Below are positions 24,819-28,836 of a stretch of DNA of 64,000 bases, one piece after another (the first letter of the stretch is position 1; each line of letters begins with the position of its first letter). The translations under genes and the position numbers were made by a program. The stretch comes from Solirubrobacterales bacterium (GTDB taxonomy: Bacteria > Actinomycetota > Thermoleophilia > Solirubrobacterales > Solirubrobacteraceae). The notes under the pieces were generated by a model that worked only from the letters and a program-made list of their open reading frames with translations, searched no databases and was not told the origin of the DNA. The stretch spans positions 375-64,374 of the forward strand of contig DAHUYZ010000006.1 of NCBI GenBank assembly GCA_027306855.1. The letters are read 5' to 3'.

Positions 24819-25298
24819 TCAGCCGAGCTGCTTCAGGTCTTCTAGGTCCTGCGGCCGGCCGGCGGCACGCTTCATGGCACGCAGGTGATCGAGGCTGCAC
24901 ACCCGGATCTCGTTGCCCCGGAAGGTGACGGGGAGGGCGTGAGGCGCGAGCTCGGAGTAGGCGAGCTCCGAATCGATGCCTTCCACCCACTGCAGGATGT
25001 CCATCGGCCCGAGATTCGTCTCAAGGCGGAAGTTGGCCCCTTCTCCGAGCTGTACGGGGTCGGTCGGATCGTAGGGGAACTCGTCGGGTGAGAACTCGCC
25101 AACGCCGACCTGCTGCGCCTGGATATCAAGAAGCAGTTGCGCTAGTCGCTCGAGGTTGTCCGGGTGTGGGCCGGGAACGATGTCAAGATCCTTGGTGGCG
25201 CGAATGAAGCCGTGTACGCCGACCGCGACGCCACCGATGACAACGAACTCGACCTGCGCGCCGATCAGCGCAAGCAGCAGGTCATCGGGGTCGAACAT
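24819..25298 (-). CDS. Nucleotidyltransferase-fold protein, putative toxin
   Basis: VVIGGVAV...RATKDLDI and MKRAAGRPQDLEDL motifs. Confidence 0.85.
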   Translation of the reverse strand: MFDPDDLLLALIGAQVEFVVIGGVAVGVHGFIRATKDLDIVPGPHPDNLERLAQLLLDIQAQQVGVGEFSPDEFPYDPTDPVQLGEGANFRLETNLGPMDILQWVEGIDSELAYSELAPHALPVTFRGNEIRVCSLDHLRAMKRAAGRPQDLEDLKQLG

Positions 25299-25479
25299 CG
25301 CCGGGCATGCCCTGCCTCAACTCGTTGATGAACTTGCTCAGACGGATTGTCTCCTCGAGCCGTTCCTCGGGCGACTTCTCCAGGTCACGTCGCGCGCGCT
25401 CCCGGTTGACGCGCTCGTTCCGCGCCTTCTCCTCAGGCGTCCAGGGTCCTTTGGGTCTGGGCTTGGGACTCGTTGCCAT
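25282..25479 (-). CDS. Small helical protein, putative antitoxin (65 aa)
   Basis: Overlaps the nucleotidyltransferase start; TACAAT 6 nt upstream of ATG; SPEERL motif. Confidence 0.65.
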   Translation of the reverse strand: MATSPKPRPKGPWTPEEKARNERVNRERARRDLEKSPEERLEETIRLSKFINELRQGMPGDVRPR

Positions 25480-25591
25480 GACGGGATTGTAGGTCCGTAG
25501 TGGCTGCATCTCCTAAGATTATAGACAACTGTCTGCGTATACCGAGGCGGTACCGGGTGTCGCTTGGCTTCGGAGGTAGGCTTCGCGCCTC

Positions 25592-26575
25592 ATGCGCGCC
25601 GTCACGATCCGCGACAAGGAGATCCTCGTCGAGGAGCACCCGGACCCCGTGCCGGGCGCCGGCGAGGTGCTTGTGTGCGTACGCGCCGCGGGGATCAACG
25701 GTGCGGACATGATGCAGCGGCGCGGTCTCTACCCTGCGCCGGCCGGCTCCCCGCAGGACATCCCGGGACTCGAGCTGGCAGGAGAGGTGGCGGCGCTCGG
25801 CCCTGGCGCGACTCGCTTCGAGGTCGACGATCGTGTGATGGCGATCGTCGGCGGGGGTGGACAGGCGGAGCTGGCTGCCGTGCACGAGCGCCAGCTGATG
25901 CCGGTTCCGGCCGCGCTCGACTGGCCGGCGGCGGGCGGGCTACCGGAGGTCTTCACGACCGCCCACGACGCGATTTTCACGCAAGCGGGTCTGCGTCCTG
26001 GCGAGCGCCTGCTCGTGCATGGCGGTGCTGGAGGTGTGGGAACGGCGGCGATACAGCTGGCCATCGCGTCGGGGGCGCAAGCAACGGCGACTGTACGGCG
26101 CGAGGAGCTGCGCGAGCAGGTGGCGGCGCTCGGCGCAGACGCGATCGCCCCCGAGGGGTTCGCCGAGTACGGGCCGTTCGACGTGATCCTCGAGCTGGTC
26201 GGGGCGCCCAACCTGGCTGAGAACCTGAGCGCGCTCGCGATGGGCGGGCGCATCTGCGTGATCGGTGTCTCGGCGGGCGCCAAGAGCGAGATCAATCTGC
26301 TTGCGCTCATGGGCAAGCGCGCGCGCATCCATGGCTCCACCCTGCGCGCCCGGCCCCTTGAGGAGAAGGCGCTCGCGGCGCGAGCCCTGGAGCGCGAAGT
26401 GCTGCCGCTGTTCGAAGCAGGCTCTACACGCGCGCGCGCAGGCTCGCGCGCCGACTCGAAGGCCCCCGCGCTCACCGTGCCGATCGCAGAGACGTTCCCG
26501 CTCGACGAGGCGGCCGCCGCATACGACCGCTTCGCCGAAGGCGGCAAGCTCGGCAAGATCGTGCTGACGCTCTAG
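25592..26575 (+). CDS. NADPH:quinone oxidoreductase (zinc-binding dehydrogenase family)
   Basis: PGLELAGEV, LVHGGAGGVG and GKIVL motifs. Confidence 0.93.
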   Translation: MRAVTIRDKEILVEEHPDPVPGAGEVLVCVRAAGINGADMMQRRGLYPAPAGSPQDIPGLELAGEVAALGPGATRFEVDDRVMAIVGGGGQAELAAVHERQLMPVPAALDWPAAGGLPEVFTTAHDAIFTQAGLRPGERLLVHGGAGGVGTAAIQLAIASGAQATATVRREELREQVAALGADAIAPEGFAEYGPFDVILELVGAPNLAENLSALAMGGRICVIGVSAGAKSEINLLALMGKRARIHGSTLRARPLEEKALAARALEREVLPLFEAGSTRARAGSRADSKAPALTVPIAETFPLDEAAAAYDRFAEGGKLGKIVLTL

Positions 26576-26739
26576 TGGTTCAGCCTGGAAATACGCTGAG
26601 GGTTTGCCGAGTGTATGCGCGTGATCTGACGGTTCACGGTGTTCGTGTGCGTACCGGTAGTACGTGTGCGAACGCCGGGAAGCGTCAGGCGCGTGCAGAC
26701 GCCGGGAAACACCAGCGGATTTACAGGATGGGCCACTAG
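26572..26739 (+). ncRNA. 168-nt rod-like imperfect hairpin; candidate structured RNA or palindromic MITE-like element
   Basis: End-to-end pairing from CTAGTGGTTCA/TGGGCCACTAG inward, with many G:U pairs valid only on the + strand. Confidence 0.6.
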
Positions 26740-27341
26740 TACGGCGGCTGAGCCGCCCACCACTCCCCGAGCGCCCGGAACGACGCCCAGAACTCGCGCT
26801 TGGAGTCCTGCTCGTCGAGCGACTCGTCGATGTTAGGGGTGTAGAGGGCGTCGATCATCGGGGTCAAGTGCTGGATCTCTCCGAGCTTTGGCTGCAGCGG
26901 TTGGGCGAGCGGGATGTCGAGGTCGTTCAGGCACGAAAGCGCGTCGGCGCCCATCACGACCACGATCCTCGGCGAGACGATCGCGAGCTCTTCGACGACG
27001 CGCGCGATGCAGGCCGGATCGGCGAGCGAAGGGTCAGGCAGAGGGCACTTCACGCACAGCGTCCCATACACCACGAGCGGATCGATCGACAGGCGCTTGA
27101 GCGACTTCATGATCGCGCCGCCCGAGCGCCCGTAGAAGGCGACGCCCTCCTCGATCTCCGACGGCAGCGGCGAGTGCTTGAGCAGCATCACATCCGCCTG
27201 CGGGTGGCCCGAGCCGAGCACCGGCATCTCCTGGCCGCGCGGGCAGTGCGGGCACGCCTGCAGCTCGCGTGTCAGCGAGTTCAGCTCCCGTATAGCCCGC
27301 TCAAGGTACTTCTCGCGGATCTCATCGTCTGTGGCGGGCAT
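26736..27341 (-). CDS. Uracil-DNA glycosylase family 4-like protein, motifs degenerate
   Basis: CPHC, VLGSGHPQADV, AFYGRSG and LCVKC motifs. Confidence 0.75.
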   Translation of the reverse strand: MPATDDEIREKYLERAIRELNSLTRELQACPHCPRGQEMPVLGSGHPQADVMLLKHSPLPSEIEEGVAFYGRSGGAIMKSLKRLSIDPLVVYGTLCVKCPLPDPSLADPACIARVVEELAIVSPRIVVVMGADALSCLNDLDIPLAQPLQPKLGEIQHLTPMIDALYTPNIDESLDEQDSKREFWASFRALGEWWAAQPPY

Positions 27342-27405
27342 GTGCGCGGATGGATTAGACGGGTCGCTCGGGAGTCCTTGCGCGTGCATACCCACTTGCG
27401 CAGTA

Positions 27406-28836
27406 TTACTTGCGCTTGGTGCCGGTCGCACGTCTGACCCTCCTCTCGCGGGAGGCGCGGCGCGCACCGGCAGGCGTCGCCTTCGTCTGCAGGAACTTGA
27501 GCGCCTGCACGTAGATCAGACTCGTCGGCTTGGTCAAGATGTCGGCGTCGCGCAGCGATTGCAAGAACTCCTCGGGCCCGTCGAAGGCGTGCATCCTGAT
27601 GCGCACCGAGCCGAGACCCTGGGCGACGTGGGAGTCCGAGCCGGCGCCCGCCGGAATCCTGTACTTGGCCGCGAACCGCGCCGCCTCCTCGTTGAAGGCG
27701 CCGATCGCCACGCGCGGATTGAAGACCTCGATCGCGTCGACATCCTCGAGGACGGGCAGCAGGTGCTCGTAGTCGGGAACCGCGTGCATGCGGTCGAAGG
27801 GGTGGGGCACGTAGACGAGGCCGCCCTGGCGCTTGATCTCCGCGACGGTCTCTTCCATCGACATGCCGCGCTCGATCTTCTCCTCGATGAACAGCCCGAT
27901 CACCTCGCCTTGAGAGGCCGTCTTGACCTCCTCTGCGACGATCACCTTCACGCCGGCGGCGGCCCCCTTCTCGCGCGCCTCCAAGGCCCCCGAGATCTCG
28001 TTGTGATCGGTGACGGCGATCGCGCCTAGCCCTTGCTCGCGGGCGGTGGCGAGCAGCACGTCGACGGGGGTGGCGCAGTCGGACGAGTGGTCGGTATGCA
28101 TGTGCAGGTCGACGTCGATCAGCTTTCGTCGCGACAGGCGCCTGCGCAGCGCCTGGTCCTCGCGCGAGTCGTGCCTTCGGCGTGCAAGCTCGCCGTACAG
28201 CGCTTCGATCGCCTCGGCGGCGCTTTCGTCGTCCGGTATGACGCGGTACTCGGCCGGGAAGTGGCGCTCCATCAGCTCCGCTGTCTGCGGCCGGCTTGCG
28301 ACACGGACGTCCAGGCGGCCGAAGAAGCTCTCGACAAAGCGGCGGGCCAGCGTCGTGGAGAGTAGCCGCTCGGTGGGGGCGTGGAACGACCCGATGTTCA
28401 GCGCGCGCGAGTAACGCAACGCGGTGGAGGAGGCGCTCGGCGGGAATGGCTCATGGACATGGATGAAGTCGAGCGGCAGCTGGGTCAGCAGCTCCTCGAG
28501 CGTGCGCGCCACATCCACCGGCAGCGCTCGCCGCCGACGCCCCGAAGAGCCCGGCACGTCGAGCACCTCGCCGATCGCGACCAGCGTCGGCGTCCCTTTG
28601 TCCGATCCTTTCAGCAGCGAGGACGCTCCGCCGCCGCCGGCCTTGGCGGCGCGCAGCTGCCGCCGCGACGCTCTCACCTGCTCGGGCGAGCGCGAAGGCG
28701 CGAGGATCAGCACGCGGTGCCCGCGCTCAGACAGCTCACCGGCAAGCCGCTTCACGTAGGCATTGACCTCGTTCTCCTGCGCCTCCCACGGGAAGGGGGT
28801 GACGTGGGCGATCGAGAACGTCGGAGAGCCGCTCAC
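27406..28836 (-). CDS. Fusion of a glycosyltransferase family 4 N-terminal domain and a PHP domain
   Basis: GHRVLILAP and HVHEP GT4 N-domain, then DLHMHTDHSSD, TDHNE, HPFD and GSDSH PHP motifs. Confidence 0.85.
   Translation of the reverse strand: MSGSPTFSIAHVTPFPWEAQENEVNAYVKRLAGELSERGHRVLILAPSRSPEQVRASRRQLRAAKAGGGGASSLLKGSDKGTPTLVAIGEVLDVPGSSGRRRRALPVDVARTLEELLTQLPLDFIHVHEPFPPSASSTALRYSRALNIGSFHAPTERLLSTTLARRFVESFFGRLDVRVASRPQTAELMERHFPAEYRVIPDDESAAEAIEALYGELARRRHDSREDQALRRRLSRRKLIDVDLHMHTDHSSDCATPVDVLLATAREQGLGAIAVTDHNEISGALEAREKGAAAGVKVIVAEEVKTASQGEVIGLFIEEKIERGMSMEETVAEIKRQGGLVYVPHPFDRMHAVPDYEHLLPVLEDVDAIEVFNPRVAIGAFNEEAARFAAKYRIPAGAGSDSHVAQGLGSVRIRMHAFDGPEEFLQSLRDADILTKPTSLIYVQALKFLQTKATPAGARRASRERRVRRATGTKRK

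Follow-up and report, generated by a model that had tools for sequence, protein, structure and literature searches.

A long hairpin between two convergent genes of a Solirubrobacterales bacterium is very probably an IS630-dependent MITE inserted in a CTAG of overlapping stop codons

Among described small repeats, the RUP elements of S. pneumoniae, which depend on IS630-Spn1, appear closest in logic to the MITE family of Solirubrobacterales reported here. Both are short and non-coding, carry IS630-like inverted repeats and insert at TA in multiple, mostly intergenic copies, and mobilisation in trans has been inferred for both from the same kind of evidence (PMC2229807). RUP is 107 bp long and belongs to a low-GC Firmicute, whereas the present family measures 162–168 bp and belongs to an actinobacterial lineage of 68% GC. 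The family also differs from RUP in its core, which is unrelated, fully palindromic and strand-asymmetric, in having two types of inverted repeat that match two IS630 elements, and in its preference for sites within TAG stops.

In Neisseria, the Correia elements (NEMIS) resemble the family in size (∼100–155 bp), in their inverted repeats and in the duplication of TA (PMC10969869; PMC2229807). Co-transcribed Correia elements fold into long hairpins and the transcripts are cleaved by RNase III (PMC10969869; PMC2229807), and they may be the closest functional analogy for a role of the hairpin in mRNA. Correia elements lack an established partner transposase, whereas the family has candidate partners; Correia elements also carry IHF sites and promoter elements, and the two papers on them revealed neither a strand asymmetry nor an orientation bias like that of the family (PMC10969869; PMC2229807). 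The ERIC (IRU) elements of enterobacteria, at ∼127 bp, are likewise comparable in length and imperfectly palindromic; they are transcribed together with the neighbouring genes, and how they affect mRNA stability varies with their orientation (PMC2229807). They differ in sequence and have neither a known transposase partner nor a clear target duplication. With IS630 and the Tc1/mariner elements, including Stowaway-type MITEs, the family shares TA duplication, hairpin MITEs and a DDE transposase with an N-terminal HTH; the entry for IS630 in table 1 of PMC2577343 adds the preference for CTAG. Unlike these elements, the copy studied here encodes nothing, and both related IS types occur in other species of the genus rather than in its own genome. 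REP/BIME or IS200/IS605-type palindromic elements are short, of 20–40 nt, and linked to Y1 transposases (RAYT/TnpA), without target duplication; the present element differs from them in size, in its long inverted repeats and in its TA duplication.

The element was found in a 64,000-nucleotide stretch (the window) of a Solirubrobacterales metagenome-assembled genome (G000; 2.23 Mb, 259 contigs, 92% complete, 68% GC), between two convergent genes.

25592–26575, + strand: Zn-dependent dehydrogenase/quinone-oxidoreductase-like gene (Pfam ADH_N, ADH_zinc_N, ADH_zinc_N_2)
26572–26739, no strand assigned: hairpin of 168 bp running from CTAG to CTAG (sequence, and folds of both strands)
26736–27467, − strand: gene of the uracil-DNA glycosylase (UDG) superfamily (Pfam UDG)

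A first-pass annotation had described this region as a near-perfect hairpin whose ends supply the TAG stops of both genes. RNAfold bore this out. The + strand of 26572–26739 formed one rod of 70 pairs, unbranched and with an apical loop of 5 nt (26655–26659), at −106.4 kcal/mol (z −11.4); dinucleotide shuffles averaged −60.4 kcal/mol, and 0 of 200 were as stable as the hairpin. The rod was continuous; the earlier annotation, too, had noted no large central bubble. Both stops lie inside the junctions, the + frame ending at TAG 26573–26575 and the − frame at the TAG that reads CTA on the + strand (26736–26738). The same annotation had noted that deviations on the + strand are mostly G:U. The rod holds 59 Watson–Crick and 11 G:U pairs, and this asymmetry is real, since the − strand folded only to −73.8 kcal/mol (z −7.2). 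Purines made up 24 of the 28 unpaired + strand bases. An ungapped inverted-repeat finder missed the hairpin, because its arms carry bulges, and RNAfold was used in its place. Just upstream of the dehydrogenase gene lie two small overlapping − strand frames (24819–25509; 159 and 75 aa), whose arrangement resembles that of a two-gene addiction or defence module.

The hairpin is one member of a dispersed repeat family. A search for further genomic copies, as the earlier annotation had proposed, recovered a 100% identical copy (G000:C66:4254–4421), a 92% copy (C197:16011–16180) and, in C178, a 51-nt stub that reproduces the element's 3′ end exactly. The genome thus holds three full copies and one stub, all bounded by CTAG. 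The stub was considered as an IS end and rejected, as no transposase adjoins it; its neighbours are a regulator-like frame (TetR-like by eye) and xseB/xseA-like frames (also named by eye). Some 3 kb away, and unrelated to it, a frame running off the contig end (G000:C178:26106–26660) looks by eye like the C-terminal part of an IS110-family transposase.

Among 41 relatives, 14 carried copies, in only two of 13 genera, with 8–11 copies in some genomes; when the family consensus was used as query, 15 copies were found in the complete chromosome of a congener (G005) and 13 in another relative (G008). A GTDB-wide scan with a 26-nt core motif, using one genome per GTDB species, gave at least 118 matches, and those listed were all in Solirubrobacterales, Solirubrobacteraceae, Thermoleophilaceae or generic Actinomycetota/Actinobacteria MAGs. 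In all, 83 independent loci of the family were available. All its hosts are uncultured soil Solirubrobacterales of a single genus-level group. The family is previously unnamed and new, and of a well-known kind.

Transposase genes of the PF13358 (DDE_3) family were present in two congeners, with 11 copies in one (G003) and three in the other (G002). They fall into two IS types, both with the HTH and DDE_3 architecture of IS630 according to Pfam.

Type A IS: 1139 bp, 373-aa transposase, ends TA followed by GTGTCCTGCGTCTTAAGTTCG...
Type B IS: 1191–1193 bp, 359-aa transposase, ends TA followed by GTGGTTCATCC(G/T)T..A.TTCG

The ends of type A match those of the main MITE subfamily (TA followed by GTGTCCYGAGTCAKAAATTCG) at up to 20 of 23 bases, and the ends of type B match the subfamily of the window copy. 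In the window copy itself, TA followed by GTGGTTCAGCCTGGAAATACG was identical at 18 of 23 bases to the type B ends, TA followed by GTGGTTCATCCGTGAAGTTCG (IS copies of 1191–1193 bp at L070 and L061). The terminal inverted repeats, of ∼21 bp, are like IS630-family ends. A single 120-bp core is thus found in subfamilies with type A and with type B repeats, and these repeats correspond to two transposases that share only 32% identity.

The junctions define the element at base level. All 12 full-length IS copies are flanked c-TA...TA-g, which corresponds to insertion into CTAG with TA duplicated; table 1 of PMC2577343, citing Tenzen and Ohtsubo 1991, gives duplication of TA in a CTAG target for IS630. 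Among 74 further MITE copies, CTAG stood at the left end in 48 and at the right end in 45, and at both ends in 33. Where the ends differed they varied independently and in the outer base only (TTAG/CTAA, GTAG/CTAA, TTAG/CTAG, CTAG/CTAC and CTAG/CTAT). Such mixed flanks fit the form N-TA-[G...C]-TA-N, and therefore a 2-bp duplication of TA; on their account a 4-bp duplication of CTAG was rejected. The earlier proposal that CTAG is a target-site duplication thus holds for the target, whereas the duplicated part is TA and not the tetramer. The boundaries of the window copy follow from the 12 IS copies (c-TA[GTG...CAC]TA-g) and from mixed-flank copies (TTAG...CTAA, GTAG...CTAA, CTAG...CTAC), with C26572 and G26739 as the outer bases of the CTAG target.

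26573–26574, no strand: left TA of the target duplication; completed by G26575, it gives the + gene its TAG stop
26575–26736, + strand (the G/U-rich, more stable strand): MITE proper, 162 bp, G first and C last (IS630 and mixed-flank junctions)
26575–26595, + strand: left terminal inverted repeat, type B, GTGGTTCAGCCTGGAAATACG (match to type B IS ends)
26596–26715, + strand: conserved strand-asymmetric palindromic core with the apical loop at 26655–26659 (family alignment and consensus folds)
26716–26736, + strand: right terminal inverted repeat, CGGATTTACAGGATGGGCCAC (paired with 26575–26595 in the fold; same end in the 51-nt stub of C178)
26737–26738, no strand: right copy of the duplicated target TA; with C26736 it reads CTA, the TAG stop of the − gene

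TA duplication with a preference for CTAG had exceptions in CCAG and CTGG. CCAG occupied the right end of nine of the 74 copies, in several subfamilies, and seven of these had CTAG at the left end, which is at odds with a clean TA duplication. Loci with such exceptional ends include L086, L088, L095, L103, L117, L134 and L141; CTGG occurs at left ends. In E. coli, drift from CTAG to CCAG or CTGG is ascribed to very-short-patch repair, and the CCAG and CTGG ends of the MITEs resemble this drift.

The 120-bp core showed no similarity to the interiors of the IS630-family elements, and the MITE is therefore not a simple internal-deletion derivative of them. Most copies are 164–170 bp long, with one subfamily of 179–185 bp and one copy of 157 bp; lengths are not kept to multiples of three, and the only open reading frames within the element are artefacts of the palindrome. 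In the 179–185-bp subfamily (L105, L110, L120, L128, L129, L131, L138, L143, L144 and L149), an extra ∼17 nt at the hairpin tip, for example ..GCTACCGATCGTCCGGGATCGGCCAGC.. in L036, lengthens the rod and leaves the arms unaltered.

No partner transposase accompanies the MITE in its own genome. Searches of G000 gave no PF13358, tblastn or blastn match to an IS630 transposase or IS end, and the MITE-rich genomes G005, G008 and G021 likewise gave no IS630 transposase match; the candidate partners are confined to congeners. This weakens the notion that the element is currently mobile here and leaves its classification as an IS630 MITE standing. An IS could have escaped assembly in a genome that is 92% complete and split into 259 contigs, and the two identical copies in G000 would argue for recent movement there.

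Element-free versions of the insertion sites occur in relatives. When the two window flanks, joined through one CTAG, were used as query, the dehydrogenase–UDG junction proved contiguous, with no element in it, in at least 15 congeneric species. In these the two genes abut or overlap; several junctions read ...CTAGTACGGCGGC..., like the window outside the element, one reads CTCACGCTCTAATAAGG, and the UDG gene of relatives ends ...GCCGCCGTACTAG at the same place. At the second locus, the identical copy in C66 lies between genes for polyphosphate kinase (ppk) and an AhpC/TSA peroxiredoxin, with both stops in CTAGs. This junction is contiguous without the element in ∼10 congeners, and the closest of them, G042, has a single CTAG. 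Relatives show empty sites with a single CTAG, which the earlier annotation had proposed to look for, or with overlapping stops; these come from other species at ∼70–78% identity rather than from members of one population. In G005 (C1:2641750–2641916), a type A copy occupies the ppk–peroxiredoxin junction, the C66 copy in G000 being of type B, and this double-stop site has been struck independently in two species by different subfamilies. Within the dehydrogenase gene, a GC-rich, low-complexity segment at ∼26416–26476 (..CACGCGCGCGCGCAGGCTCGCGCGCC..) breaks alignments to many congeners or is skipped over ∼45–60 nt in them, and looks like a lineage-specific coding insertion.

CTAG holds TAG on both strands. 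In G000 it occurs at 1149 sites, 0.17 times expectation, a roughly six-fold depletion; ∼16% of these sites are the stop of a gene-like frame and ∼1% are stops on both strands. (In the same genome TTAA stands at 0.09 times expectation, and GATC and TCGA at ∼3.4 times.) By heuristic gene calls, 36 of 77 MITE copies shared a stop with a flanking gene-like frame, five of them on both sides, an enrichment of about three-fold over random CTAG sites. With G as the first base of the element, C as its last and TA duplicated, CTAG is rebuilt at both junctions, and a stop codon in the target is kept on either or both sides. Insertion is target-driven; the three-fold enrichment is what loss of intragenic insertions would leave, and points to a selective filter.

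Taken as a whole, the hairpin is with high confidence a non-autonomous, IS630-dependent MITE of ∼162 bp plus duplicated TA that landed in the CTAG of two overlapping stops. The observed repeat family, inverted-repeat match, TA/CTAG junctions, empty orthologous sites and stop-codon enrichment would be accounted for by an IS630-family (HTH and DDE_3) transposase moving the MITE in trans, by cut-and-paste, into the TA of CTAG. In the window, the insertion would have hit a CTAG where the convergent TAG stops overlapped; since both genes keep their stops, it was harmless and survived. CTAG on both sides in 33 of 74 copies might instead suggest an IS5 or PIF/Harbinger-type derivative that duplicates CTAG (4 bp) or TAG/CTA (3 bp), and some IS5-family elements do target YTAR or CTAG. 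Such an origin is very improbable, as the left and right tetramers vary independently and solely in the outer base, which fits a 2-bp duplication, and as the ends match IS630-family elements that are themselves flanked c-TA...TA-g. The convergent genes, the very stable hairpin and a length near that of 6S RNA had also raised the idea of a locus-specific bidirectional terminator or stand-alone sRNA gene (6S/Ms1-like) that evolved in place. A Rfam search of the region with E values up to 10 matched neither 6S nor Ms1; the best matches were plant and animal miRNA hairpin models, chance hits far below threshold, and the continuous rod likewise told against the 6S/Ms1 suggestion. A classical bidirectional intrinsic terminator is not supported, as there is no U tract and a terminator scan was empty. 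Identical and related copies at unrelated loci, together with the empty orthologous junction of at least 15 congeners, refute an origin in place, which we regard as the least credible of the explanations; that the hairpin is a new sRNA gene in its own right is unlikely.

The family is ordinary in kind, with one oddity, a strong difference between its strands. Every copy, at 83 independent loci, was more stable on the same strand, with a median difference of 30 kcal/mol, and the family consensus folded to −108.5 kcal/mol on the strong strand versus −75.4 kcal/mol on the weak one. By majority state, the 69 rod pairs comprised 59 Watson–Crick pairs, nine G:U pairs, one A·G mismatch and no A:C, so that the G:U deviations noted at the window hairpin extend to the whole family. 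Purines occupied 27 of 30 unpaired consensus positions, and the G/U-rich strand holds 67 G versus 40 C. RNAalifold gave −84.7 kcal/mol in the strong orientation, with compensatory changes at 29 of 59 pairs, and −59.3 kcal/mol with a broken centre in the other. Parsimony on a FastTree phylogeny counted 91 changes from Watson–Crick to G:U versus 51 to A:C, and on terminal branches alone 70 versus 40 (p 0.005); at unpaired sites, G-to-A changes were common. The earlier inference of a constraint acting at the level of a single strand is therefore reasonable. In the outer ∼20 bp, part of the covariation is explained by both inverted repeats having to fit one transposase, and much of the asymmetry may go back to the founder element. 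Transcription-linked mutation bias was rejected as the source of the G:U excess, which did not flip with the direction of neighbouring genes, although counts were small.

Orientation relative to host genes was also biased. Strands of flanking genes were assigned from codon-position GC periodicity, and an independent ORF/GC3 method agreed. Between co-directional genes, the weaker strand would be transcribed at 21 copies and the stronger at four (p 0.0009), and neighbouring genes ran into the weak (right) end in 44 cases and into the strong (left) end in 20. The 15 copies on G005:C1 lie between 0.10 and 3.11 Mb, and 13 of them share one absolute strand to either side of dnaA (1.64 Mb). A replichore-linked orientation was rejected, as these copies keep their strand across dnaA and the change in GC-skew sign. 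A near-perfect rod inside a transcription unit could be polar or be cleaved, and such insertions would be lost by selection. From the bias, we suggest with low confidence that selection removes copies in the strong orientation from transcription units, where they would be polar or do harm in some other way. Where the flanking genes converge, as they do in the window, either orientation would be tolerated. There the hairpin probably ends or protects both convergent mRNAs, and when transcribed it would now be a 3′ structure serving both genes. The element region held no consensus match to a sigma-70-like promoter, and a scan of 26300–27000 found no intrinsic terminator on either strand. In the sequence itself, neither arm is followed by a T run.

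These features bear on an addition to the MITE reading, namely that the element has acquired a function at the RNA level and that its G/U-rich strand is a selected long rod RNA, with candidate roles as an RNase III substrate, a 3′-end protector, a roadblock resembling a terminator, or an RNA that is antisense or structured. In its favour are the common strand preference of all 83 copies with its median of 30 kcal/mol, the nine of 69 rod pairs that are mostly G:U with none A:C, the purines at 27 of 30 unpaired positions, the excess of changes to G:U (91 versus 51; 70 versus 40 on terminal branches, p 0.005), the compensatory changes at 29 of 59 predicted pairs and the 21 versus 4 orientation in tandem contexts (p 0.0009). 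The RNase-mediated and orientation-dependent effects of Correia and ERIC elements offer precedents (PMC10969869; PMC2229807). The favoured orientation, however, places the weaker, C/A-rich strand in read-through transcripts (44 versus 20 genes), so that a functional strong RNA would need an unseen promoter or antisense transcription, and the scan revealed neither a sigma-70-like promoter nor an intrinsic terminator. Compensation in the outer ∼20 bp is also expected from co-evolution of inverted repeats and transposase, the asymmetry could stem from the founder, and the G:U excess, in small numbers, was independent of host transcription direction. We consider an acquired RNA function possible but doubtful. 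A broader form, in which the core is a strand-specific structured nucleic acid and the elements are mobile, orientation-dependent RNA modules whose orientation is under selection, is unlikely. This form would have the 80-bp rod kept on the G/U- and purine-rich strand of every copy, would allow the hairpin to be polar or insulating, to serve as an RNase III site or to yield an antisense rod RNA, and would have one core captured by two IS630 systems through exchange of inverted repeats.

The candidate that the first-pass annotation had listed as a palindromic MITE is thus the one that the evidence favours, with multiple copies, IS630-family partners with matching inverted repeats, and empty sites in relatives. 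A repeat family of this sort breaks MAG assemblies, mimics sRNA genes and occupies stop codons, and knowing it averts false annotation as a ‘novel sRNA’ or ‘terminator’. No major question of the field is changed by these findings, and the asymmetry and the orientation bias add modest extra interest. The family shows how target choice and end sequence together allow a transposon to insert silently, and the asymmetry, with the 21:4 bias, suggests that the hairpins of bacterial MITEs are not neutral in transcripts.
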